Below, piece by piece: positions 9,620 through 32,811 of a stretch of DNA of 64,000 nucleotides. This stretch comes from Cyanobacteria bacterium P01_H01_bin.74 (GTDB lineage: Bacteria; Cyanobacteriota; Vampirovibrionia; Vampirovibrionales; Vampirovibrionaceae), in the NCBI GenBank assembly GCA_038745945.1, contig JBCDLA010000002.1, forward strand, positions 871-64,870, read 5' to 3'. Numbering within the stretch: the first letter of the stretch is position 1; every line of letters starts with the position of its first letter. The notes under the pieces are model-generated. The model did not search any database. It had not been told where the DNA came from and saw nothing but the letters and a program-made list of their open reading frames with translations. Position numbers and translations under genes: made by a program.

Positions 9620-10489
9620 TCAGCAATTATTGAGTAGTATATTTTGAAACACCCTGCTTTTTACGCAGTACTTTGGTAACAAATCTGCCTGAACCTCACG
9701 AATTTCATTAATTCTCGGCTGTGGCAATATGTTTACAGCCCTGTTAAATTGTTTCGACAACAGGTTTCTCATAGCGGCATTGAGTTTTTTTGTGGACAAT
9801 GACAACCCTTTGGGATGGTTTTGATAGAAATTTAAAAACAAAGCCCCATGATAGAGAATACCCCCCTTTCTTCTTAGCTGAGAACAACCCATCTGTTTAT
9901 TGCCTGCCTGATCAACAATGTCTGCAATTGCTTGGGTGTCAAAGCATCGAAAAGCATTATTTAAGGCGTTTAAATTTTTTTGGTTCTTTTTACTTTCAAT
10001 AACAGACTGCACCTGTAATTCAGCAGAGCCAATCGCAGCATTAATTGCATCAACAATAAAAGAGGAAAGCAAGCAATACGTCTCTTTAACGGACGTATTG
10101 ACCAGTGCTGAACAGTTTGTAATTACAGCAATAGAAATATCATTCCCATGAAGAACAGCTTGGCCACCTGTAGGACGCGAGATAATGCGGCGGGGTGATA
10201 TATTACTTGTATTGTTGATATGACAACTTAGCAAACTACTGGCGGATGGATCGGCCTTTTTGTTGCCTGTCATAAAACGAAAAACCGATTGCCTGCTTTG
10301 GTTCACACCTATTGACAAAGTGGGTTCTTGCCAGGTGTACACACGATATAAAAACATTGGCTCGCATTGCGCTCTAACCCAGTTGAGACAGGCTTCATCG
10401 AAACTCATTGCCAGTATGCCGTTACTGTCAGCAATAGGCAAGGCATAGAGCTTAATCTGTTTATAATCAGGGCAATTTCTCTGCAGCAT
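9620..10489 (-). CDS. lipoate-protein ligase / octanoyltransferase family (BPL/LPL catalytic domain) protein
   Basis: RPTGGQAVLHGNDISIAV and KQMGCSQLRRKGGILYHGALFL match the BirA/LplA/LipB catalytic-domain motifs (RRxTGGGAV-H ... K-aGsAQ-r--g-iLhHGtl). Confidence 0.6.
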   Translation of the reverse strand: MLQRNCPDYKQIKLYALPIADSNGILAMSFDEACLNWVRAQCEPMFLYRVYTWQEPTLSIGVNQSRQSVFRFMTGNKKADPSASSLLSCHINNTSNISPRRIISRPTGGQAVLHGNDISIAVITNCSALVNTSVKETYCLLSSFIVDAINAAIGSAELQVQSVIESKKNQKNLNALNNAFRCFDTQAIADIVDQAGNKQMGCSQLRRKGGILYHGALFLNFYQNHPKGLSLSTKKLNAAMRNLLSKQFNRAVNILPQPRINEIREVQADLLPKYCVKSRVFQNILLNNC

Positions 10490-20415: not shown

Positions 20416-21219
20416 TTAAAATATTTTGGCATAGTAATTCAAGTGTTCAATCACCATCTGCATAAAGATGGTTAATGTAATCCACATAGTCGCCAAACCT
20501 ATCGATGGCTTTAATGCAAAACTCAGCTGAAACACCGGGATCTGCTGGGCTGTCCGGTTGACCACACCCAGCATCAAATCAACGGCCATGGTGACTACAA
20601 TAGCCGGAGAAACCATTTGAACCCCGATGGACAGAACATGGCTGGACAAGTGGACCAAATACGACAGATCAATCGCTGTTCTGAAATCGTGTGTCACACT
20701 GTACAACGGAAATACTTCTAAACTGTGGTGCAATGCATTAATCAGCCAATACATGCCACCCAGGTACAGAAAGACACCAATGGCAATAAAACTAAATAAG
20801 GTCTCCAACAGCATGGTCTGAGACCCCTGAGAGGGATCCATAATCATGGCCGAAGACAATCCAATCTGATTGTTTAATACGTTGCCAGCTGCATTAATGA
20901 CTTGCAGAATCATGTTGGCAATAAAGCCAATAAAGGCACCGACCACCACATTTAATAAGATTTGAAGCATGTACACCGGATAAGCATCCATATTGTTGAC
21001 CACGCCTGCCGGATGGGGGGACACGGTAAACGAAAGCATTATAGTCAGGTAAACCGCCAGACTTATTTTTATGAGGATTGGAATATTTTTTCGATTAAAC
21101 AACGGGGCTGTTCGCATAAATGCCAATATTCTGAAAAAAAGCAAAAGTAGACCGTCTAAATACGGCCCAAATTTTTCGTACAGGCCCATATACGATTGCA
21201 GCGCCAGTGAGAAGTCCAT
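20416..21219 (-). CDS. fliR: flagellar/type III export apparatus protein FliR (SctT family)
   Basis: 267-aa polytopic membrane protein with FliR/SctT-like layout. Last gene of the Q-O-P-Q-R block. Confidence 0.75.
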   Translation of the reverse strand: MDFSLALQSYMGLYEKFGPYLDGLLLLFFRILAFMRTAPLFNRKNIPILIKISLAVYLTIMLSFTVSPHPAGVVNNMDAYPVYMLQILLNVVVGAFIGFIANMILQVINAAGNVLNNQIGLSSAMIMDPSQGSQTMLLETLFSFIAIGVFLYLGGMYWLINALHHSLEVFPLYSVTHDFRTAIDLSYLVHLSSHVLSIGVQMVSPAIVVTMAVDLMLGVVNRTAQQIPVFQLSFALKPSIGLATMWITLTIFMQMVIEHLNYYAKIF

Positions 21220-21284
21220 TGTCGTATTGTGTTCTCTTGGTATTATCTCGGGATTTTCTTCTATTTAACAGGACATTTGGTTGT

Positions 21285-21818
21285 TTACGGTCTGGCTGAA
21301 TTCTCGGCTGAAGATTTGTCGAGTATCAATTGTTCAGCATGTGAGGCCGGATTTGCAGGAGTTTGACCTGGCTTAAAAACCCTTGTGCTTTTTGATGCAG
21401 AATCCACCTGTGATTGCCCACTCCAGCCTTTCATCAAAGCATTCAGCTTGTCTGAGTTGCCATCGGCGCTGTTAACTTGTGCCTCAAAAAAAGCACGGGC
21501 CCGGCTGTAGCCATCCGATTGACTGCTGCTTGGCTTCAAAACAAAAATGCCATCTTGCGGCAACTGATTAAAGGCAATAAAGGCCGCATCCCGAAAAAAA
21601 TTGGTCATTAACTCTATCATAAACCCCCCCCCCAAAAGCAGGACCAAGAAAACAGCCACTATTTTTGGTGCCGCAGAAATGGTTTGTTCCTGGACTTGAG
21701 TAACCGCCTGCAAAATGCCAACCACCAAACCAACACCTGCAGCAACCAGGGTGGTTGATAAAGAGAGCATCAGAACCAGTAGGATGCCGCGCTTTAAAAA
21801 TTCTAACAAGATTTCCAT
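21285..21818 (-). CDS. fliQ: export apparatus protein FliQ (SctS family) with ~90-aa hydrophilic C-terminal extension
   Basis: First 86 aa align with FliQ/SctS (…LVVGILQAVTQVQEQTISAAPKIVAVFLVLLL…). The ORF then continues in frame for ~91 polar residues (…SSSQSDGYSRARAFFEAQVNSADGNSDKLN…). Normal FliQ is ~89 aa. Confidence 0.7.
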   Translation of the reverse strand: MEILLEFLKRGILLVLMLSLSTTLVAAGVGLVVGILQAVTQVQEQTISAAPKIVAVFLVLLLGGGFMIELMTNFFRDAAFIAFNQLPQDGIFVLKPSSSQSDGYSRARAFFEAQVNSADGNSDKLNALMKGWSGQSQVDSASKSTRVFKPGQTPANPASHAEQLILDKSSAENSARP

Positions 21819-21842
21819 ACAGTAAAACTTCCGGAAAAAATT

Positions 21843-22475
21843 TTAATTAAAGCTCTGAACAAGGCCATTAACAACAAGCCCCCAACCATCAACTGCCACA
21901 AAAATTAATATTTTAAAGGGCAATGAAATAATGGTAGGCGACAGCATCATCATCCCCAAAGCAAGTAGGGTATTGGCTACAACCAGGTCAATAACAATGA
22001 AGGGAATAAAAATAATGAAACCAATTTCAAAAGCTGTTCGTAATTCGCTAATCATAAAAGCTGGAGCCACTTCCCAAATAGCCAAGTCATTGGGTGATTC
22101 AGGCGGTTTTTTTCGTGAAATCTGCAAGAAATAGGCAATGTCCTTTTCGCGGGTTTGTCGCATCATAAACTTTTTTAAAGGCTCTGATCCTCGTTCCATA
22201 ATCTGAACAACATCGCCTTTTTGAGCCATCACTGGGGCAATATTGGCATACATCTCCCCAAATACTGGTGCCATCGTATACATCGTTAATACCAAGGACA
22301 TGCCCACCATGACTATGCCTGGCGGAACCTGTTGGGTTCCAAGAGCAGTTTTCAAGATAGATAGCACAATGGTATAACGCAAAAAACTGGTCATGCTGGC
22401 CACCACAAAAGGAATGAGTGACAGGCTGGACATTAGGATAATTAGCTGTAAGGCCGGATCAAGGTTGCTGAACAT
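21843..22475 (-). CDS. fliP: export apparatus protein FliP (SctR family), no cleavable signal peptide
   Basis: Strong FliP/SctR identity: ASMTSFLRYTIVLSILKTALGTQQVPP, FMMRQTRE, ELRTAFEIGFIIFIPFIVIDLVVANTLLALGMMMLSP, PFKILIFVAVDGW. At 210 aa with a short N-terminus it resembles SctR, but the adjacent gene is fliO-like. Confidence 0.85.
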   Translation of the reverse strand: MFSNLDPALQLIILMSSLSLIPFVVASMTSFLRYTIVLSILKTALGTQQVPPGIVMVGMSLVLTMYTMAPVFGEMYANIAPVMAQKGDVVQIMERGSEPLKKFMMRQTREKDIAYFLQISRKKPPESPNDLAIWEVAPAFMISELRTAFEIGFIIFIPFIVIDLVVANTLLALGMMMLSPTIISLPFKILIFVAVDGWGLVVNGLVQSFN

Positions 22476-22610
22476 TTATAAAATCCAATTAATTATGAAA
22501 CCCAATTTATGCGGATAAAATTTTTCTGGAGTACACTTAAAGATGTATTGCCAATGAGAGCCACTAAAAACAGAATAAAGTCAAGACAAACTATTCAGCA
22601 ATAATAACCA

Positions 22611-23132
22611 TTACTTGCCTGTTCGACTGGCTATCAGCCAACGAATACTGCTCAAGAACCGCTCTTGAAACCCATTGCCACCAACCATAGTGCCAGCCCT
22701 CTGGTCACGGAAGAGCCTACGTACAGGATGCTGTTGGTAGTTTTCTTCTTGAGCATGCGGTTGATACCAGGGCTGACTGGCTGTGAGCGCGTCTCCAGTT
22801 TCAGCATCTGGGGTTTTAGACAAGCGTTCCAATGCAGAAACAGGCTCCAACCGAGACAGCAGTGAAACGGTATTATTACTGTTGGAAACCAGAAACCGTT
22901 CATCACCGTTGCGAATCACATAAACAGACTGCACGGGAGACAGGGCCAATGAAGACTCAATGCCCAGTTCAGGATGATCTGTGTCTTGTGAAAGACCGGA
23001 TGCCCCTGCAGAAGCATTGCTGCCCCGTTTGCCGCTCACCAGCCAATAGGTTAAGTAAAGCACACCCAGTGCAATAAAAGTGTACAGTATAAAAGAGCCC
23101 AAGTAGTATTCAATACTGTTTGCTTCAATCAT
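22611..23132 (-). CDS. fliO: FliO-like small single-pass membrane protein
   Basis: N-terminal TM (LGSFILYTFIALGVLYLTYWLV), then a KRG...ASAGASGL... segment, then SPVQSVYVIRNGDERFLVSNSNNTVSLLSRL. This parallels E. coli FliO (…ISASASLGARERVVVVDVEDARLVLGVTAGQINLLHKL). Position between the fliN-like gene and fliP matches flagellar operons. Confidence 0.5.
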   Translation of the reverse strand: MIEANSIEYYLGSFILYTFIALGVLYLTYWLVSGKRGSNASAGASGLSQDTDHPELGIESSLALSPVQSVYVIRNGDERFLVSNSNNTVSLLSRLEPVSALERLSKTPDAETGDALTASQPWYQPHAQEENYQQHPVRRLFRDQRAGTMVGGNGFQERFLSSIRWLIASRTGK

Positions 23133-23177
23133 AATGTCGCTTTCCTTTTTGGGCTGTTTTGTCGCAGCAAGTCTTTA

Positions 23178-24626
23178 TTAATCCCAGTCTTCATCATCAT
23201 CGTCAAAAGCATCATCCAGATCACTTAAGGGGTCTGTTGCTTCCGAGAGTCCCGCAACATCAGAGTCTGGTTGCTCAAGTGGGTCATTAACGCGTGTTTG
23301 ATTAACCGAATTGTGTGCCTCAACGGTTGTCAAAGAAAGGCTGGTTTCAGTGTCGGACTCTGTCATTTTTACAGCCCGAACGCGCACGCCAAACTTGTCG
23401 CCAATAATTAGAAGCTCTCCTTCGGCAATCGGTTTGCCATCCACTTGCAATGTCACCAGATTGTTAACAACATCGCCAAGTTCAACCACAATGCCTTCTG
23501 AGATTTGTTTTAAATGCTTTAACGGCAGTTTAACGGGGGGCAGTTCTGCAATTAAGTCAACATGCAGATTGTCCCAAAGGCCTGAACTCTTCTGTCCTTG
23601 AGAATCTTCTGAATCGGCATTGCCCAGACTGACCATAGTTAAAAAGTCCTTTTCATCAGGGGGGATTAAGCTTTTTTTGCGGGCAGGATCCCACTGGATT
23701 AAAAACGCACTGCCCAAGCTGGTTTTTTTGGAAAACTGGGCGGGACTCCCAGGCCTGCATTCTGAAAAAAACAAAGTATCGCACTGGCTCTCATCCAGTA
23801 CAATCATATCACCCGGTTCAATTAAGTGCAGCTCACCCAGCTTGACCTTGGTTTTTCCCAAGACAAGTTTCGACAACAGGGTCATCTGGAAAAAGACAGC
23901 ATCTGAAAAGTCTTGCTCTGTGTTGGGCCTGCTTTTTTCGGCGGTAAAATCAATGGCCTCAATTGCCACTTTGACCAGCAACTGACCCAGGTCTGCATTG
24001 ACTCCTTCATTGCTGGCATTGCGCTGCGGGCTTGAAATTACCCAGATTAAGTCAATAAAGCCATCAGCATTGTCTGGCAACTGATTGTAAATAATTTGGG
24101 TTGCTGCCTGATGTTGTGCCAGTTTTGTACCTTCTGAAATAAGTGCTGAGTCCTTGAAAGCCAAAGACAGCTGCTTTGAAAAGGCTTGGAATAAGCTGTT
24201 TTCCAAAGGCGTCACCTGATCTAATGAAAAGCCGTTGCCATGGTCTTCTTCGGGCGATTGCCCCAGTGACGCATCAAGAAGCTGACTGCACAAGGGCTCA
24301 GAAAACCGCCACTCGACGACGGTCAATGCGTCCAATGAAACCAGTGGCTGTAAATGGGCCATATCAATGGATGACACATGAAATCCGCCTGCCTGTTGGC
24401 AGAAATAATGGGGTTGTTCACTGGCACCGAGAAACTTCACCGAAAATCCCTCAATGCCCCAAAAGTTTTGCAAAGACATTGCGATGTCTTCTGAAAATCG
24501 GGTGGCCAGATTCAGAATGGGTTGCCAGGCAGATGCAAAGGGGACAACCGTGATTGTCTCAAGCAAACGGGGGCTCACCCCGGTTGAATCTGAAACCAAT
24601 GCATTCATATGGTGCTGATTACCCAA
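23178..24626 (-). CDS. type III/flagellar C-ring protein of the SctQ/FliN(FliY) family with two SpoA domains and an acidic C-terminal tail
   Basis: Two SpoA-like (FliN fold) segments: …TLLSKLVLGKTKVKLGELHLIEPGDMIVLDES… and …LPLKHLKQISEGIVVELGDVVNNLVTLQVDGKPIAEGELLIIGDKFGVRVRAV…. The poorly conserved N-terminal 250 aa is typical of SctQ. No FliM-type LSQEEIDALL/GGXG motifs. Ends in DLDDAFDDDDEDWD. Confidence 0.65.
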   Translation of the reverse strand: MGNQHHMNALVSDSTGVSPRLLETITVVPFASAWQPILNLATRFSEDIAMSLQNFWGIEGFSVKFLGASEQPHYFCQQAGGFHVSSIDMAHLQPLVSLDALTVVEWRFSEPLCSQLLDASLGQSPEEDHGNGFSLDQVTPLENSLFQAFSKQLSLAFKDSALISEGTKLAQHQAATQIIYNQLPDNADGFIDLIWVISSPQRNASNEGVNADLGQLLVKVAIEAIDFTAEKSRPNTEQDFSDAVFFQMTLLSKLVLGKTKVKLGELHLIEPGDMIVLDESQCDTLFFSECRPGSPAQFSKKTSLGSAFLIQWDPARKKSLIPPDEKDFLTMVSLGNADSEDSQGQKSSGLWDNLHVDLIAELPPVKLPLKHLKQISEGIVVELGDVVNNLVTLQVDGKPIAEGELLIIGDKFGVRVRAVKMTESDTETSLSLTTVEAHNSVNQTRVNDPLEQPDSDVAGLSEATDPLSDLDDAFDDDDEDWD

Positions 24627-24847
24627 TTGGCTGGCGGATGGTTTTATTACTTATTATCAGTTTAAAGGGTAACAGGGCACCTGTGTTAATGAAAGCAATA
24701 GAGATACAGCATTTACAGGAGTTTAAAAAAAGTTTTAAGTTTTGATAAAACCGGACCAGAACACGCGTTGTGCTTTGGCAAAAAAAACGGGCTTGCATTG
24801 TCTGGCAAACCCATTTTAAACTGTTCCATTTTGTAGCTAAAAATCTT

Positions 24848-26320
24848 TTAGACAGGGGCCAACTGCTTCAGTGTGGCATTGGCCTCTTCAATATTACCCT
24901 CAAGCCCCATGGTTACGGTCTTGGCTTTGGTGGCTGCTTCTGCAGAGGTTCGTGCCATTTCTTGTGCCGCCTGATTGAGCTCACCAATGTTTCGGGTAAT
25001 TTCAGCAATACCCTGCAACGAGTCTTCAACCCGACTGGCAACATTACTGGATAGCTCAGTGGCTTCCGTCACATTTGAGGCAACATTCTTGGTGGATTGC
25101 GCCGTTTGGGTAATGTTGCCAGAAATCTCATTGGAAACAGCAGTCTGCTCTTCAACGGCGCTGGCAATAGTGCTGTTAATGTCGTTAATTTCGCCAATAA
25201 CGGTTGCAATGGTGTTGATGGCAGAAATAGACGTATCGGTGTTTTTCTGCATGCCTTCCACCTGAACCCGAATGGTCTCTGTGGCTTGCGCCGATTGCTT
25301 TGCCAGCTCTTTGACCTCATTGGCAACAACGGCAAAGCCTTTTCCTGCATCACCGGCACTGGCAGCCTCAATGGTGGCGTTTAATGCAAGCAGATTGGTC
25401 TGGGCGGCAATCTCTTTAATAATATCCACAATTTTACCAATTTCTTTAGCAGACAAAGCCAGGTTCTCAACGGTATTTTTCGTTTCATCCGCTTTTTCTG
25501 TGGCACTTTCTGCAACAGCAGATGCTTTTGCAGCATTTTCAGAGACTTCTTTTAATGAAGAAAGCATTTCCTGGGTGGATTTGGATACAGTCTGCATCGT
25601 CTGGTTAATGTCTTCAACCGCCTGGGTAACCACGGTCATTGAATCGCTCATTTTGTTGGTCGATTGTCCAACATTACCCACGTTTTCTTCAATGGTATTA
25701 CTGGCCCGCAGCACTTCCTGAATGTTGGCAGTCGACTCTTCAACCGCACTGGCCACGGTAGAAACATTGCTATTCAAATCAGAAACGTTGTCTAACACAT
25801 CGTTTAAAGAGACCACCAGTTTTTTAGAACTGGTTTGTTTCACTGTATCGTTGTAAATGGTAATGGCAATGTCAATATCAAGGAAAGCAGCCCTCAACAA
25901 GCTTTGGAATGCCAGTGTTTTTTTGGCAAGGGGTACTTTTTTCTCTTCAAATGCTTTCATCATGGCTGCTACCATTTCTGCAATGGCAAAGCTATAGCCA
26001 CCCAGATAAAATTGCGGCTCAATGGCGCGTTCTTCGTGGGTACGTCCTATTTTTTCAATCCGCTGCATATAGCTTTCATCAAACACCCCTGAAAATAAGC
26101 CTTCCCAATGGCGCTGCTGAGCTTTTTTGGCATATTCTGCGGAACTGGCTGTTTTAAACTTAGCCTGCAGTTGTGGCCATTGAAAGATATGCTCGTAAAA
26201 CTTGTCTAAAACCGGGCCAATATGATCTTTAATGGCCGGCATCACCACGTCTTTCAAGGACTCTGATGTCTCTTGATTGATTTTTAAAAACCGAAGCCGT
26301 TCTTCACGCGAGGTGCTCAT
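24848..26320 (-). CDS. soluble methyl-accepting chemotaxis protein with N-terminal globin-coupled sensor (HemAT-like)
   Basis: N-terminal protoglobin/sensor-globin domain (…KDHIGPVLDKFYEHIFQWPQLQAKF…EPQFYLGGYSFAIAEMVAAM…). C-terminal MCP signalling domain with the highly conserved tip (…TETIRVQVEGMQKNTDTSISAINTIATVIGEINDINSTIASAVEEQTAVSNEISGNITQ…). No TM segments. Confidence 0.75.
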   Translation of the reverse strand: MSTSREERLRFLKINQETSESLKDVVMPAIKDHIGPVLDKFYEHIFQWPQLQAKFKTASSAEYAKKAQQRHWEGLFSGVFDESYMQRIEKIGRTHEERAIEPQFYLGGYSFAIAEMVAAMMKAFEEKKVPLAKKTLAFQSLLRAAFLDIDIAITIYNDTVKQTSSKKLVVSLNDVLDNVSDLNSNVSTVASAVEESTANIQEVLRASNTIEENVGNVGQSTNKMSDSMTVVTQAVEDINQTMQTVSKSTQEMLSSLKEVSENAAKASAVAESATEKADETKNTVENLALSAKEIGKIVDIIKEIAAQTNLLALNATIEAASAGDAGKGFAVVANEVKELAKQSAQATETIRVQVEGMQKNTDTSISAINTIATVIGEINDINSTIASAVEEQTAVSNEISGNITQTAQSTKNVASNVTEATELSSNVASRVEDSLQGIAEITRNIGELNQAAQEMARTSAEAATKAKTVTMGLEGNIEEANATLKQLAPV

Positions 26321-27234
26321 AATAATGTATTCTCCCTACTCTCCAAGCTAATTAAAAAAATTTTTCCGTACTTAAACCGCCCTATCAAAACAAGACTGGT
26401 TTATGAACAATTTATGCGCCATACACGCAGACCACTTTGCTAGTAATTTCCAGCTGACTCTCTAAGACTATTTTTTTATGCTTAGTTAAAGCAATTGAGG
26501 AAATTTATCAATAGAAAAGGCACAATCAATAATAAAGAGGCCCTTTACATTAAATAAACACGATATATTGAATTATACCATCAGGTTTCAAAAAAAGATC
26601 AGAACAAAAATGAATTGTTTTTAACAGATTCTTCAAACAAACTGTATCAACATATTTTCTGAGACATCTTATAATTGAAAATATGAAGAATCACCAGCCA
26701 AATGGGGTATTTTTTCAACAGATCCCAGCTGTGCTTTTAAAGAAACCGAAAAAGTGATATACTATTTAGTATACAAGTGTGTCGTTCTGTGGTGGTTCAA
26801 TAAAGTCTGATCAATTTAACCAAGAAACCGAACTGGCAAGACTCAGAAAGCAGGGTAAACCAGCAAGTATGATCAAGACCAGTAAAGACTTTAACCACCT
26901 GCAATTCAAGTCAGCAAGCACTAATTCGGGTTAATGGACTGAACAATAAAGTTGTGGCCTGGCCAACGCCTTATTTACTGTGTGATTCATCAAATGCGCT
27001 AGTAAGGGGTTAACTCATACGGGCCAAAAATCGGGCCAAAATCCGAGCTTGTAAGTCTTCTGGCTTGATGAAGGACTTGTTTCCCAGATTCAGTGTTAGC
27101 AGAACCACAGCACCTGATAAATTAGGCTTTAACCCCTTTTTTATTTTAAAACAGGGGCCTGGAAAGAATTTTGGACTCTTTAAAAGAATTTTTGAAAAGC
27201 TTTCATCATTTTTACATCATTATAGACAGGACAA

Positions 27235-30200
27235 GTGGCACCGATGACATCAGAAGACAATCCGAATACCCTCTCTCATTTTCTCTTTAAAACGCTGGTA
27301 CTAACGGGGATGCGCCCCCTGCGCGACCAGGCATTTAACAGCACCCGCAACGCCAAAATTTCAAAAACTGAAAATGAGGCCCTCGATGCTGGATCTGTGG
27401 GCTACGAACAGGAAATTATTGCGGGCAGCCCCCAGTGGGAAAAGCTCTTGAATATGCCGACACCAGCCCTGACCCGGGAAGAGGAAGCCTTTATTGACGG
27501 CCCTGTTGAAACCTTGTGTGCCATGCTGGATGACTGGGAAATTCGAACACAAACCCACGATCTGCCCGCTGAGGTCTGGCAGTTTATGAAAGACGCTGGC
27601 TTTTTTGCCCTGATTATCCCCAAGGCCTATGGCGGACTGGCTTTTTCTGCACGGGCCCACTCCGATATTATTTTAAAACTGGCCAGTCGCAGTGCAACAG
27701 CATGTGTCACGGCCATGGTGCCCAATTCTCTGGGGCCTGCCGAATTGCTGGCAGTTTATGGGACTCCGGAGCAAAAAAGCTATTATTTGCCCCGGCTGGC
27801 CCGTGGTGAAGAAATTCCGGCCTTTGGCCTGACAGAAACCAATGCCGGCTCAGATGCCTCCAGCATGACATCCGCTGGTACAGTTTGCAAAAAAGACGGC
27901 GTGCTGGGCATTCTACTGAACTGGGACAAGCGTTATATCACACTCAGCCCCATTGCCACCTTAATTGGCATTGCCTTCAAGCTTTCTGATCCAGACCACC
28001 TGCTGGGCGATGAAGACGATCTGGGTATCACGCTGGCCCTCATTCCAGCCAGCAGCCCGGGGGTTGAAATTGGCCGGCGGCACAACCCGCTGGGGGTTCC
28101 GTTCCAAAATGGGCCGACTTCCGGGAAGGACGTGTGGGTTCCTATTAATGCCATTATCGGCGGTAAAGAGTATGCTGGCCAGGGCTGGCGCATGCTGATG
28201 GAATGCCTTTCCGTAGGCCGGTGCATTTCATTGCCTGCCTTATCCGTTGGATCTGCCAAATTGGTGACGCAAATGGTCACCGCCTACAGCCGGGTACGTC
28301 AGCAGTTTAAACTGGCCATTAGTCAATTTGAAGGCATTGAAGAAATGATAGCCCGCATTGCCGGGCACACCTATTTAATGGAAGCAGCCCGGGTGGCCAC
28401 GTTGCAAATGCTGGATCGCGGGGAGCACCCCACGATTTTATCTGCGGTAATGAAGTACCACACCACCGAAATGGCCCGTACCATTCTCAATGATGGCATG
28501 GATGTGCTGGGCGGCAAGGCCATCTGCGAAGGGCCTGACAACTTAATGGCGGCACTCTACCATGCCATCCCTATTGGCATTACCGTAGAAGGGGCCAATA
28601 TATTAACGCGCAACTTAATTATCTTTGGGCAAGGTTCGGTGCGCTCTCATCCCTATCTGTTGAAAGAACTGCGGGCAGCCAAGCTGGAAGACCGCAAGGC
28701 TGCAAAAGCGGCCTTTACAAAGCTGATGGCATTCCACGTGGCAGACAGCACCCGAAACGGGTTTAACAGCGTTTTGTTCGGCCTGACAGACGGCCACCTG
28801 AGCAATACCCCAGCCTGCTCCGCTACTGAGTATAAGTATTTTAGGCAGATTAACCGCTTGTGTGCGGCCTACGCCACGATGGCTGACATCACACTGATGC
28901 TTCTGGGAGACGGGGTAAAGCGAAAAGAGCGGATTTCTGCCCTGCTGGGGGATACAATGAGTTACCTGTACCTGTCCAGTTGCGCGCTTCGGCATTTCCG
29001 GATTGAAGGCAGCCGTGAAGAAGACAAGCCACTGATGCAATGGTCTTGTGAGTATCTGCTGTTTAAGGCCGAAGACAGTCTGGCCACACTGATTCATAAC
29101 TTTCCGCTGCCCAGTGCCTTGCAGTGGGCCAATCCGTTTCTCTACCTGCTGGTCTTTCCAAAAGGCCGGCGATTTAACCAGGCCAACCACCGGCTGGACA
29201 AAGCGGTGGTAAACGCTGTGATGAAAAACCCTGAAACCCGTGCCCGCTTGACCAGCGGGGTGTATCAGCCCCAAAACACCGATGAACCCTTGGCCGTCAT
29301 GGAAGCAGCATTCAGTGCTGTGGTTCACGCGGACACCACATTAAAAACATTGCGCCAGCAGAAAAAAGCGGGCAACTTGGCGGGTGATTCCCCGGAAGCC
29401 TGGGTGAATGACGCACTGGAAAAAGGCTTAATTACTGAAGAGCAAAAGCAACAGCTGGCCACTGCCGAGCAGTTGCGCCAGCGGGTCATTCGGGTGGATG
29501 ACTTTAATTTGAATTTGGATCCGGTTGAAAAAAAAACGGCACTGGCCAACGGTAAAACCCTGAGAAATCAGTATCCGCTGGGCACGCCCTGGCAGATAAA
29601 TATTCCGCGGCAAACACTTGTGGATGTACTCAATAAAAGCGTGGCCCACTTTGGCAAACTCAATGCCATTGACTCAATGGGCAAAAAGTACACCTACGAG
29701 GAACTGGGCGATCTGGTCCACAAGGTGGCCGCCGGGCTACAACACCTAGGCGTTCGAAAAGGCGACAAAGTGGCGCTGTTTATGCCCAACACGCCTTACT
29801 ACACCATCTTTTTCTTTGCCATTGTGAAAGCCGGGGCTGTGGTGGTCAATGTATGCCCGGTTCTCACGACACCGGAAGTAAAAGAACAGCTGGAAGACAG
29901 TGAGACCAAGGTTCTTGTAACACTCAATTTAAAAAACACCTTTGAAAAGGCAGATGCCCTTGGCAAGGCCAAAGTGGTGGAGCATGTGGTGGTTTGCCCC
30001 ATGAGCGAAGTGTTGCCATTCTTAAAAGCCCAGGCCTTCCGTTTTTTGCGCAAAGACAGTGTTGTGAACCTGGATAAATTATCGACAGATGAAGCGGAAA
30101 ACAAGCACCTGGTAACTTATAAAGCAGTGGTCAACAGCAGAACCCCGTATTGTCCGCAAAAAATCTCACCAGATGATTTGGCAGCCCTCCAGTATACCGG

Positions 30201-31371
30201 GGGAACAACCGGATCGCCCAAAGGGGCAATGCTGACCCATTATAATCTGCTGGCCAACGTCTATCAGATTGAACATTATTTTTTAGAGAGTGCCAACAAA
30301 CCCAAAACCGATGCCCTCCTGGCACAGGGAAACGAACGCGTTTTGGGCAATATTCCGTTTTTTCATATTTTTGGGTTAACGGTTGCCATGTTGTGCACGG
30401 TTAAAATGGGCAACGAGTGCATTATTCTGCCCGATCCGCGCAACACCAAAGACACCTTAAAAGCCATCCACGAGAAAAAGCCCACGCTTTTTCCTGCGGT
30501 GCCGCGCCTGCTGCAATCACTGAAGGAAAATCCCAAAGTACATCAATACGATCTAAGCTCACTAACTACCGTTATTTCAGGTGGCGCCGCACTGCCTGAA
30601 CAGCTTAAGCAAGCCTTTGAGGCACTGGCCAAGACCCCAGGCCTCATCAAAGAAGGCTACGGCCTGACGGAAGCATCACCCGTCATTGCGTGCAACCCGG
30701 CTTACGGCAACAACAAGGTCAATTCGGTGGGGCTGCCCTTGCCCAAAACCCAGATTAAAATTGTGGATGCTGAAAATCCGAACAAAACGTTGCAGTTGGG
30801 TGAAGTGGGTGAAATCTGCATTCAAGGGCCGCAGGTGATGCTGGGCTACTACAAGCAATCCGCTGAAACAGCCGAAGTGATTATTGACGGCTGGCTGCAT
30901 ACCGGTGATTTGGGGTATATGGACGACACCTATTACATCCACATTACTGACCGCAAAAAGCGCCTGATTCTGGTCAATGGCCTGAATGTCTACCCGACGC
31001 AAGTGGAAGCAGCCATACACCGACACCCGGCAGTCGAGGAATGCCTGGTCATCAGCGTGCCGGATCCCCGTTCTGGTGAAGCCGCGAAAGCCTTTGTTCG
31101 GCTAAAAACAGGCCTGGGGGCTTACCCATCTGCAGAAGATATGATAAGGTTTTTAGCAAAGGATCTCAGTCGGATTGAAATTCCGAAACACCTTGTGTTT
31201 GTGACAGAGGAGTTGCCAAAAACCAGTGTTGGAAAGCCCGACTGGAAAACCCTGCAGGACAGAGAGCGAGGCTTGCCCCTTCAAGTGGGTGAGCCCGATG
31301 ACGCGGACACTGTCCCGTTACTAGAACATCCAGAAGAAGATACTGCATATCCAAAACAAGAACAGGCATAA
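27235..31371 (+). CDS. natural fusion: acyl-CoA dehydrogenase (FadE-like, N-terminal ~780 aa) + long-chain acyl-CoA synthetase (FadD-like, C-terminal ~590 aa)
   Basis: N-terminal part is collinear with E. coli FadE from ...SKTENEALDAGS... through ...VIRVDDFNLNLDPVEKK (…LARGEEIPAFGLTETNAGSDASS…, …GITVEGANILTRNLIIFGQG…). The same frame then continues into a FadD-like AMP-binding enzyme: VALFMPNTPYY, LQYTGGTTGSPKGAMLTHYNLLAN, GYGLTEASPV, GWLHTGDLGYMDDTYYIHITDRKKRLILVNGLNVYP, KTSVGKPDWKTL. A single 1378-aa ORF (GTG start; alternative ATG at 27244). Confidence 0.8.
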   Translation: MAPMTSEDNPNTLSHFLFKTLVLTGMRPLRDQAFNSTRNAKISKTENEALDAGSVGYEQEIIAGSPQWEKLLNMPTPALTREEEAFIDGPVETLCAMLDDWEIRTQTHDLPAEVWQFMKDAGFFALIIPKAYGGLAFSARAHSDIILKLASRSATACVTAMVPNSLGPAELLAVYGTPEQKSYYLPRLARGEEIPAFGLTETNAGSDASSMTSAGTVCKKDGVLGILLNWDKRYITLSPIATLIGIAFKLSDPDHLLGDEDDLGITLALIPASSPGVEIGRRHNPLGVPFQNGPTSGKDVWVPINAIIGGKEYAGQGWRMLMECLSVGRCISLPALSVGSAKLVTQMVTAYSRVRQQFKLAISQFEGIEEMIARIAGHTYLMEAARVATLQMLDRGEHPTILSAVMKYHTTEMARTILNDGMDVLGGKAICEGPDNLMAALYHAIPIGITVEGANILTRNLIIFGQGSVRSHPYLLKELRAAKLEDRKAAKAAFTKLMAFHVADSTRNGFNSVLFGLTDGHLSNTPACSATEYKYFRQINRLCAAYATMADITLMLLGDGVKRKERISALLGDTMSYLYLSSCALRHFRIEGSREEDKPLMQWSCEYLLFKAEDSLATLIHNFPLPSALQWANPFLYLLVFPKGRRFNQANHRLDKAVVNAVMKNPETRARLTSGVYQPQNTDEPLAVMEAAFSAVVHADTTLKTLRQQKKAGNLAGDSPEAWVNDALEKGLITEEQKQQLATAEQLRQRVIRVDDFNLNLDPVEKKTALANGKTLRNQYPLGTPWQINIPRQTLVDVLNKSVAHFGKLNAIDSMGKKYTYEELGDLVHKVAAGLQHLGVRKGDKVALFMPNTPYYTIFFFAIVKAGAVVVNVCPVLTTPEVKEQLEDSETKVLVTLNLKNTFEKADALGKAKVVEHVVVCPMSEVLPFLKAQAFRFLRKDSVVNLDKLSTDEAENKHLVTYKAVVNSRTPYCPQKISPDDLAALQYTGGTTGSPKGAMLTHYNLLANVYQIEHYFLESANKPKTDALLAQGNERVLGNIPFFHIFGLTVAMLCTVKMGNECIILPDPRNTKDTLKAIHEKKPTLFPAVPRLLQSLKENPKVHQYDLSSLTTVISGGAALPEQLKQAFEALAKTPGLIKEGYGLTEASPVIACNPAYGNNKVNSVGLPLPKTQIKIVDAENPNKTLQLGEVGEICIQGPQVMLGYYKQSAETAEVIIDGWLHTGDLGYMDDTYYIHITDRKKRLILVNGLNVYPTQVEAAIHRHPAVEECLVISVPDPRSGEAAKAFVRLKTGLGAYPSAEDMIRFLAKDLSRIEIPKHLVFVTEELPKTSVGKPDWKTLQDRERGLPLQVGEPDDADTVPLLEHPEEDTAYPKQEQA

Positions 31372-31374
31372 GAC

Positions 31375-32565
31375 ATGAGTAAAACCGATTCTGTGGCGCG
31401 AGATGCCGTTATTGTTGACTTTGTGAGGACCCCGTTTGTTAAAGCGTTTGAACCCACAGGGCATCGGACAAAAACCGGAAAACTGGCCCATGTTCTGCCG
31501 GATGATATGGTGGCGCAGCTGGTCCAGTCTGCTTTATCCAGAAATCCGATTCCGCCAGAGCACATTGAAAGCCTGGTCACCGGCTGTGTTCACCAGGAAG
31601 CGGAACAAGGCCTGAACCTCGCCCGGCTGGTTGTGTTAAATCCAAAATCAGGCTTGCCGCAGTCGGTGGGGGCGGTTACTGTCGATCGATTTTGTGGATC
31701 CTCAATGCAAGTCATTGCAGATGCAAAAAACAGCATTTTGGCAGGCGAAGCCGAAGCCATTCTGTGTGCTGGCGTGCAATCAATTAGCCGCATCCCCATG
31801 GCCGGGTGGAACCCGATGCTTAACCCGGCTGTCTATGAGGGCAATGCCAAAGGCTTTATGAATATGGGCATCACGGCTGAAAATCTGGTGAGCCAGTACG
31901 GTATTTTACGGGAAGAGCAGGAAGCTTTTGCCGTTCGATCCCACCAAAAAGCGGCTGAAGCCAGAAAACAAGGCTATTTTCATCAGGAAATGATTGCCAT
32001 TGATGGCATTGATGCCGATGATACCATCCGGGAAGACAGTTCCGCTGAAAAAATGGCCACACTGTCCCCCGCTTTTAAACATGATGGAACAGTAACGGCA
32101 GCCACCTCTTCGCCAGTGACGGACGGGGCAGCACTGGTTCTGGTGACATCTGCCGCGTTTGCAAAAAGCCACGGCTTAAGCATTCTGGCAAAAATCCGGG
32201 CCTTTGCCGGCTCAGGCTGCGCCCCAGAAGTGATGGGGATTGGCCCCGTGGAAGCCAGTAAAAAAGCGCTTTCGCGTGCGGGCCTTACTATGGCGGATAT
32301 GGATATTGTTGAGTTGAATGAGGCCTTTGCCGCACAATCCCTGGCTGTTTTGCAGGCCTGGGAAACCGATGGTATGGCAGTCCCTTGCGAGAAGCTCAAT
32401 ATTGACGGTGGCGCGCTGGCGCTCGGTCATCCGTTGGGAGCCTCTGGCGCAAGAATTACGGGCAAAGCAGCCAGCCTGCTGCACCGTACTGGTAAGCAAT
32501 TTGCCCTGGCCACCATGTGCATTGGCGGCGGTCAGGGGGTTGCCATGGTTCTTGAAGCGGTTTAA
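31375..32565 (+). CDS. fadA: acetyl-CoA C-acyltransferase (3-ketoacyl-CoA thiolase)
   Basis: Thiolase motifs VDRFCGSSMQ (active-site Cys), …NEAFAAQ…, and C-terminal ALATMCIGGGQGVAMVLE. Starts 4 nt after the fadE-fadD fusion. Confidence 0.85.
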   Translation: MSKTDSVARDAVIVDFVRTPFVKAFEPTGHRTKTGKLAHVLPDDMVAQLVQSALSRNPIPPEHIESLVTGCVHQEAEQGLNLARLVVLNPKSGLPQSVGAVTVDRFCGSSMQVIADAKNSILAGEAEAILCAGVQSISRIPMAGWNPMLNPAVYEGNAKGFMNMGITAENLVSQYGILREEQEAFAVRSHQKAAEARKQGYFHQEMIAIDGIDADDTIREDSSAEKMATLSPAFKHDGTVTAATSSPVTDGAALVLVTSAAFAKSHGLSILAKIRAFAGSGCAPEVMGIGPVEASKKALSRAGLTMADMDIVELNEAFAAQSLAVLQAWETDGMAVPCEKLNIDGGALALGHPLGASGARITGKAASLLHRTGKQFALATMCIGGGQGVAMVLEAV

Positions 32566-32811
32566 GACGTGGTTTTCATGTGTGAACAACCAGATTGTTA
32601 ATAGCCAAGTTTTAAGAGCAAAGTTTTACCTATAAAGCTTTCTCAGTGTTTTTTCCGTTTTGGATGAGTCCGGGCAGAAGACGGTCTCTGCCACTATTTT
32701 AAATTCATTTAACCCCAATTTTAAGCCCCTCCTTATTTTTAAGCTCATACTTATTTCAAGTTCCTCCTTATTTTAAATTTCCCTTCCCTATAACCCAGAA
32801 GTCAAAGCGTC

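Follow-up and report, generated by a model that had tools for sequence, protein, structure and literature searches.

A 64,000-nt stretch of contig JBCDLA010000002.1 from Cyanobacteria bacterium P01_H01_bin.74, a member of the Vampirovibrionales (assembly GCA_038745945.1, positions 871 to 64,870, forward strand; hereafter the window), was analysed around a single open reading frame (ORF) in which a FadE-type acyl-CoA dehydrogenase (ACAD) is continued by a FadD-type acyl-CoA synthetase. The fusion ORF is followed by genes for a FadA-like thiolase and a FadN-type bifunctional enzyme, and is preceded by an AT-rich intergenic region. Coordinates of the main features are collected in Table 1.

Table 1. 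Positions of the fusion ORF, its parts, its operon partners and other features of the window (aa, amino acids; A9, run of nine A; MCP, methyl-accepting chemotaxis protein)
Feature	Position	Strand	Evidence or remark
Whole FadE–FadD fusion ORF	27235..31371	+	1378 aa from GTG 27235; ORF translation
FadE-type ACAD module, aa 41–757	27355..29505	+	ACAD N/M/C domains and ACDH_C helical domain; ends VDDF
Glu452 in ITVEGANILTR, ACAD catalytic-base position	28588..28590	+	Inspection against ACAD9 'IFEGTNEILR'
Junction/linker, aa 758–779 (~22 residues)	29506..29571	+	Variable sequence and length across the fusion family
A9 homopolymer (GAA AAA AAA A) in linker	29528..29536	+	Junction DNA comparison
FadD-type acyl-CoA synthetase module, aa 780–1345	29572..31269	+	AMP-binding and AMP-binding_C domains, ANL motifs
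Disordered acidic C-terminal tail, aa 1346–1378	31270..31368	+	Last codons overlap the thiolase translation-initiation region
Acetyl-CoA C-acyltransferase (FadA-like thiolase)	31375..32565	+	Pfam, NCBIfam; starts 3 nt past the fusion stop
FadN / Staph_FadB-type bifunctional enzyme, 917 aa	32812..35565	+	3HCDH_N 25–219, 3HCDH 222–321, ECH 526–681
AT-rich intergenic region upstream of the operon, 914 bp	26321..27234	.	GC down to 0.35; divergent protoglobin–MCP gene on the far side
Protoglobin-coupled MCP	24848-26320	-	Adjoins FliN-like, FliP and FliR-type genes (20416-26320)
465-aa protein with C-terminal dual-specificity phosphatase domain	44152-45549	-	
1668-aa ORF	55055-60061	-	

Domain content of the fusion protein

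The fusion ORF runs through 1378 codons with no internal stop, and Pfam and NCBIfam domains of both enzymes were recovered within it, in agreement with the initial annotation of this DNA, which had placed FadE and FadD in one frame. The same protein is held by NCBI as MEM0950596.1, which begins three codons later (ATG 27244, 1375 aa) and carries the public label 'acyl-CoA dehydrogenase' alone; ATG 27244 rather than GTG 27235 is the probable true start. The GC content of the gene (0.519) and its GC at third codon positions (GC3, 0.577) are the highest among the 36 ORFs of the window (means 0.445 and 0.43, respectively), values compatible with a foreign origin or with high expression. A family alignment was built from 34 full-length fusions, in which the two halves are conserved to an equal degree (57–72% identity), with block conservation of 0.75–0.97 in both catalytic cores.

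All Pfam domains of the FadE half scored above their gathering thresholds (Acyl-CoA_dh_N, residues 99–192; Acyl-CoA_dh_M, 196–290; Acyl-CoA_dh_1, 315–462; ACDH_C, 469–757). The NCBIfam model NF007000 / PRK09463 was matched by residues 41–759 with 995.7 bits against a cut-off of 600, over profile positions 5–722 of 726, which assigns this half by profile to the PRK09463 subfamily of FadE. The NF038187 model (FadE_coli) was matched with 868.3 bits against a cut-off of 1300, and only over profile positions 80–797 of 816; judged by profile, the protein falls outside E. coli FadE proper, and since the match begins at position 80, the N-terminal membrane segments of the E. coli enzyme are absent here. 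A hydrophobic segment was sought in residues 1–80 and none was found (highest 19-residue Kyte–Doolittle window, 0.56), so that the earlier description of a FadE without N-terminal membrane segments stands. Glu452, within VEGANIL (a motif of the MCAD/VLCAD-type 'EGT/AN' kind), is invariant in 34/34 fusions, and was equated with the ACAD catalytic base by eye, without a structure-based alignment. Among solved structures, those of VLCAD and ACAD9 come closest to the FadE half; they share the homologous ACAD core (ACAD9 8phe, E = 2e-36) and, like the FadE half, bear an extra C-terminal helical domain beyond the core; unlike the fusion, they are eukaryotic mitochondrial proteins without a fused ligase. 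No solved structure matching the ACDH_C domain by sequence was found.

For the FadD half, Pfam AMP-binding (residues 802–1206, 7.7e-95, 318 bits) and AMP-binding_C (1256–1334, 67 bits) were both recovered, and NCBIfam long-chain-fatty-acid--CoA ligase models matched residues 769–1345. The ANL motifs comprise YTGGTTGSPKG at 987–997 (P-loop, A3), GYGLTE at 1141–1146 (A5), TGD at 1223–1225 (A7), DRKK at 1239–1242 (A8, hinge D1239) and PKTSVGK at 1328–1334 (A10, catalytic-type Lys1334); across the 34 fusions they vary little or not at all, and they align to 4-coumarate-CoA ligase. By Foldseek, the modelled FadD half has the full two-domain ANL fold, with TM scores of 0.87–0.91 to structures of 4-coumarate-CoA ligase and McbA. 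The C-terminal part had been read in the initial annotation as a full, adenylate-forming acyl-CoA synthetase with ATP/AMP motifs; with both Pfam domains present and all quoted motifs located, this half is an acyl-CoA synthetase of the ANL superfamily.

Domain content and domain order within each half are the same as in E. coli FadE and FadD: the FadD PRK08974 profile was matched over positions 6–554 of 561, and the fusion keeps VDDF from the C-terminus of E. coli FadE and 'YP' from the N-terminus of FadD. The E. coli enzymes are two separate proteins, against one polypeptide here, and the fusion scores 868 against 1300 and 404 against 884 bits on the corresponding models. The E. coli fadE and fadD genes are unlinked. 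The chemistry of the fusion is expected to be that of E. coli FadE plus FadD.

The junction and the occurrence of the fusion

The FadE half ends with an invariant V754-D-D-F757 (nt 29505), and the FadD half starts with an invariant Y780-P781 (nt 29572), in keeping with the earlier estimate of a junction at nt 29520–29600. Stand-alone FadDs of the Micavibrio type start M-x(5-15)-LA[LI]ADGxxL..YP, and the same motif lies at fusion residues 769–781; the whole FadD N-terminus has therefore been kept, with added material of only ~10 residues. At the junction, where the FadD N-terminus runs on directly from the FadE tail, neither a start codon nor a ribosome-binding site that could serve an independent fadD is conserved. 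Two AlphaFold models were made, covering aa 465–1378 and aa 41–1238, with mean predicted local distance difference test (pLDDT) values of 89.4 and 89.6, respectively; pLDDT was below 50 only at residues 754–765 in the linker and 1351–1378 in the tail. Of the ~22 joining residues, just 9–12 are thus modelled with low confidence. In these models, FadE and FadD are two confident bodies on a flexible tether.

One family member, P0033, carries an insert of ~135 aa in the linker region (about residues 780–914). A duplicated FadE C-terminal helical hairpin was considered for this insert on account of a similarity seen by eye, and was rejected as BLASTP gave no significant match. P0035 (950 aa), considered as a split or precursor form of the fusion, proved to be an unrelated stand-alone FadE beside a TetR regulator.

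Separate fadE and fadD genes could have been joined by an overlooked stop, by a frameshift or through chimeric assembly, and two features of the window are of the kind expected from such an artefact: it comes from a metagenome-assembled genome, and the A9 tract in the linker is a classic indel-error site. In a scan of 185,579 species, each represented by a single genome, an alignment spanning the junction matched across it in 11 species only, labelled Vampirovibrio, Vampirovibrionales or Melainabacteria, among them the cultured Vampirovibrio chlorellavorus NCIMB 11383 (orthologue at about 191.5–195.8 kb of LAPX01000001.1). The junction frame is open in all 11 of these species genomes, and in 9/9 further metagenomic contigs. 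These 20 sequences were assembled independently, one of them from an isolate, and all carry the same in-frame junction, which rules out an assembly artefact as the source of the fusion. Thirteen of these junctions are without a long homopolymer in the linker, and the lack of a conserved fadD start or ribosome-binding site, with FadD directly continuing the FadE tail, also speaks against separate genes. An artefact is thus scarcely credible, and the missed stop or assembly join raised as a concern in the initial annotation is excluded by the open frame in all of these sequences.

Residues 180–1378 were also searched against 1.84 billion 50%-identity representative proteins. The fusion family formed one representative cluster (1653 bits); the next match, at 584 bits, was a multi-module protein resembling non-ribosomal peptide synthetases (NRPS), and stand-alone FadEs and FadDs reached at most 580 and 561 bits, respectively. 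No second FadE+FadD family was found in the best 150 matches, and fusions of far more distant ACAD/ANL families would score below this listed range. Other long FadD-containing matches were lipase– or acyltransferase–FadD fusions without FadE. P0281, P0311 and P0358 are such natural FadD fusions (lipase-like Hydrolase_4 with FadD, and acyltransferase with Hydrolase_4 and FadD), and such proteins would couple fatty-acid release to activation. A FadE–FadD fusion is not mentioned in the literature searched, which included Melainabacteria genome papers and a Micavibrio paper; beta-oxidation genes are noted in the paper on the V. chlorellavorus genome, which leaves the fusion unmentioned (PMC4451040). 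The single cluster and the silence of this literature uphold the earlier remark that the architecture is non-standard, and among the genomes searched the fusion was found only in the order Vampirovibrionales, predatory, non-photosynthetic cyanobacteria.

The A9 tract was also considered as a functional element. A gain or loss of one nucleotide at A9 leads to a stop at aa 774 or 776, both shifted frames ending within ~10 codons, and hence to a FadE-only product. Transcriptional slippage like that of Thermus thermophilus dnaX, or −1 frameshifting on A_AAA_AAA, would yield the fused enzyme together with a free FadE of ~775 aa, and so a higher FadE:FadD ratio. In T. thermophilus dnaX, nine A's give ~50% transcriptional slippage, and selection generally acts against runs of this kind (PMC1088944). 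In the window and in loci L001, L003, L004 and L009 (loci at 10377–10385), an exact A9 sits at an identical linker offset, and the codon after it differs (ACG, ATG, AGG) with A as its first base every time; L011 has an independent A9 elsewhere in its linker (10423–10431), L055 an A8, and L001 and L002 a T8. Runs of at least 8 outside the linkers are limited to one A8 and two C8 in 12 fusion genes (window and genome loci), with none in the nine added contigs. Of the 21 junction DNAs, 6 have an A9 in the linker and two others an A8 or T8; the remaining 13, which include the window's nearest relative, P0002, have no run of at least 8, and this argues against a conserved slippage site. A conserved E-K-K written in AAA/GAA-biased codons (0.6–0.8) would, moreover, give a run by chance in roughly 1/3 of cases per lineage, and 13 A/T runs of at least 8 lie inside ORFs of the window itself. 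Downstream of A9, hairpins are not conserved (z −0.6 to −2.4, folds differ) and none is clearly stable, and a −1 frameshift stimulator 3' of the tract was rejected. Slippage or frameshifting at A9 is therefore considered unlikely.

Operon organisation and relatives

Wherever a locus is of sufficient length, the gene order is fusion, thiolase, FadN, and these three genes are predicted to encode the core beta-oxidation steps. The FadN-type enzyme covers profile positions 2–751 of 752 of NF052272, with 426 bits against a cut-off of 999, and its predicted domain order is of the FadN type, with the dehydrogenase N-terminal and the hydratase C-terminal. The initial annotation had described a thiolase followed by a reversed-order HAD-ECH enzyme; both genes were found, and the 'reversed' order is that of an already known type (Staph_FadB / FadN-like), the Bacillus/Staphylococcus-type FadN having the same dehydrogenase-then-hydratase order. 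In the Bacillus operon, the acyl-CoA dehydrogenase is a short ACAD without a ligase fusion. At 917 aa, the FadN-type enzyme exceeds the 752-position Staph_FadB profile through insertions and a C-terminal extension of ~55 aa; Vampirovibrionales and Micavibrio-type FadN homologues align to it almost over the full length (to about residue 904–916 of 917).

The ends of the fusion genes were surveyed in the window (31354-31377) and in L001-L011 and L052-L060. In 18/21 loci the gene ends GAG CAG GCN TCA TGA, with the thiolase ATG lying within TCATGA (ATGA overlap), and a GGAG ribosome-binding site is contained in the last fusion codons, 9–12 nt upstream of the thiolase ATG. The Glu codon of the tip is GAG in 19/21 loci, despite the GAA preference of these genes. 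Taken together, the sequences indicate that the fusion and thiolase genes are translationally coupled. At the protein level, the fusion ends ...EQAS, EQA or EQAL after the disordered acidic tail in 30/34 cases, a tip that is not found in the stand-alone relatives; it is conserved because the thiolase start codon and ribosome-binding site overlap the end of the fusion gene. A protein docking motif was considered for 'EQAS' and rejected, as this overlap and the GAG codon bias explain it instead.

Between the thiolase and FadN-type genes lies an AT-rich spacer of 246 nt (32566-32811) with a terminator-like hairpin at 32673-32692 and a direct repeat of roughly 13 nt, CTCCTTATTTT(T)AA, at about 32728-32743 and 32763-32778; the spacer could be an internal attenuator or promoter. 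The intergenic region at 26321-27234, which presumably holds the operon promoter(s), gave no Rfam match and no convincing ORF, and promoter-like sites were seen only at consensus level. An RNA element or regulator beside the operon was also sought and rejected: Rfam gave only a distant tRNA, and the flanking genes are unrelated.

In a database-wide search, the nearest stand-alone FadDs were 49–51% identical to the FadD half, and the nearest ones with a name or a traceable contig are alphaproteobacterial, including one on a contig of Micavibrio sp. UBA6147. The alphaproteobacterial FadD heads the same fadD–thiolase–FadN cluster, unfused. Clusters of Micavibrio, Caedibacter and Paracaedibacteraceae-like bacteria (L012-L041) have the same three-gene order and orientation, with FadD 49–51%, thiolase 51–59% and FadN 39–46% identical to the counterparts in the fusion operon, and their FadDs share the N-terminal LA[LI]ADG..YP motif. 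Unlike in the fusion, FadD is a separate gene in these clusters, and FadE either lies elsewhere or adjoins the cluster: L013 has an unfused FadE (50% identical), divergent and just upstream of the fadD cluster, and in L021 FadE is convergent and downstream. In a neighbour-joining tree, made without bootstrap and with sampling biased by locus retrieval, the fusion FadD halves formed one clade next to L013. The best stand-alone matches to the FadE half (~52%) come from Nitrospirota and from several groups of proteobacteria, with the Micavibrio FadE at 50%, and by sequence comparison no clear nearest lineage is apparent for this half. Among the listed matches of either half, no close relative labelled as another cyanobacterium or melainabacterium was found. 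The same FadD–thiolase–FadN order with an unfused FadD in Micavibrio-type bacteria suggests a shared module and a single fusion event. The fadD-fadA-fadN module was probably shared with Micavibrio-like bacteria by horizontal transfer, in either direction, and we infer that the fusion arose once, in an ancestor of the Vampirovibrionales, and was kept by every member sampled.

On the opposite strand, the operon is flanked by genes for a protoglobin–MCP protein, FliN-like, FliP and FliR-type flagellar export proteins and a GGDEF protein, and the gene set at 20416-26320 fits a motile, oxygen-sensing, non-photosynthetic melainabacterium. The flanking genes of the window are not found beside the fusion in the loci of other genomes. 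Elsewhere in the window, the phosphatase domain of the 465-aa protein is of a type known from polymorphic toxins and from 'Swiss Army Knife' proteins.

Proposed function and significance

The ORF very probably encodes a bifunctional beta-oxidation enzyme, in which an anchor-less FadE is joined via ~10 flexible residues to a complete FadD-type ligase, the two having been fused once in the Vampirovibrionales. In the proposed reaction sequence, the C-terminal ligase would convert free fatty acid, ATP and CoA to acyl-CoA, which the tethered, N-terminal FAD-dependent dehydrogenase would oxidise to 2-enoyl-CoA; the FadN-type hydratase/dehydrogenase and the thiolase would then finish the beta-oxidation turn. 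Both activities and the long-chain substrate are assigned here from sequence. The selective advantage may be that the two enzymes are always co-expressed and co-localised, perhaps with acyl-CoA handed on locally, which would suit an organism feeding on what its prey contains.

Several observations weigh against this assignment, or against a hand-off through a tunnel or interface. The FadD half remained under the cut-offs of the FadD equivalogs NF006523 (404.1 against 884 bits) and NF004114 (448.8 against 766), and of the subfamily model NF004837 as well (410 against 476); it resembles long-chain fatty acyl-CoA synthetases, but by these scores it is not placed within a FadD equivalog, and its substrate is therefore only putative. 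The predicted template modelling (pTM) scores of the two AlphaFold models were 0.67 and 0.62 despite a pLDDT near 90, and a fixed FadE–FadD interface, considered as a candidate, gains no support from them. FadD works once per fatty acid and FadE once per cycle, so that a 1:1 ratio is not obviously optimal. Finally, no electron transfer flavoprotein was found among the 16 window ORFs scanned.

The scores of the FadD half, under every NCBIfam equivalog and subfamily cut-off, would also be expected if one half were a degenerate pseudo-enzyme, kept only for scaffolding, regulation or membrane targeting. FadD proteins associate with membranes, and such a half could tether the anchor-less FadE. The catalytic motifs of both halves are, however, invariant in the 34 sequences, with the high block conservation given above, and the model of the ANL fold is highly confident, also for the mobile C-terminal domain and Lys1334, which makes a pseudo-enzyme very improbable. 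A non-catabolic role is about equally improbable, in which 2-enoyl-CoA made from a free acid would feed the synthesis of lipids or secondary metabolites. Lipopeptide clusters carry pairs of acyl-CoA ligase and dehydrogenase, and the combination follows the logic of some fatty-acyl tailoring pathways too; against this, the thiolase and hydratase/dehydrogenase genes always follow the fusion, with the thiolase translationally coupled to it, the flanks hold chemotaxis, flagellar and GGDEF genes instead of NRPS, polyketide synthase or acyltransferase genes, and a FadE-type long ACAD with a FadD-type ligase is the canonical degradative pair.

For the catabolic, bifunctional enzyme, channelling and the scavenging of prey lipids are plausible because the clade includes the algal predator Vampirovibrio chlorellavorus; acyl-CoA channelling is supported by no computation made here, the AlphaFold models included. 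An extended proposal, in which A9, where present (in the window, V. chlorellavorus and others), is a dnaX-like slippage site tuning the dehydrogenase:ligase ratio, and the fusion, by passing acyl-CoA on locally, commits fatty acids taken from prey to oxidation, is regarded as unlikely.

No concept is overturned by these findings, since proteins that unite successive enzymes of a pathway are well known: FadB/FadJ and the mitochondrial trifunctional protein likewise fuse consecutive steps, and none of them joins a ligase to an acyl-CoA dehydrogenase. What is new is the covalent FadE–FadD architecture and its occurrence, in the genomes searched, in the Vampirovibrionales only; each half comes from a well-known family. 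As a 'Rosetta stone' that ties the activation of fatty acids to their first oxidation, the fusion argues that FadD and FadE act in proximity, which is hard to test where the proteins are separate. It offers a single-chain system for asking whether acyl-CoA passes locally from ligase to dehydrogenase or is set free, and possibly for obtaining a structure of the unsolved ACDH_C-type FadE. The public label 'acyl-CoA dehydrogenase' hides a fatty-acid--CoA ligase from metabolic reconstructions. In these data the fusion is a synapomorphy-like marker for the Vampirovibrionales, and the likeness of its module to that of Micavibrio-like predators hints at an exchange of lipid-catabolism genes between unrelated predatory or host-dependent bacteria.

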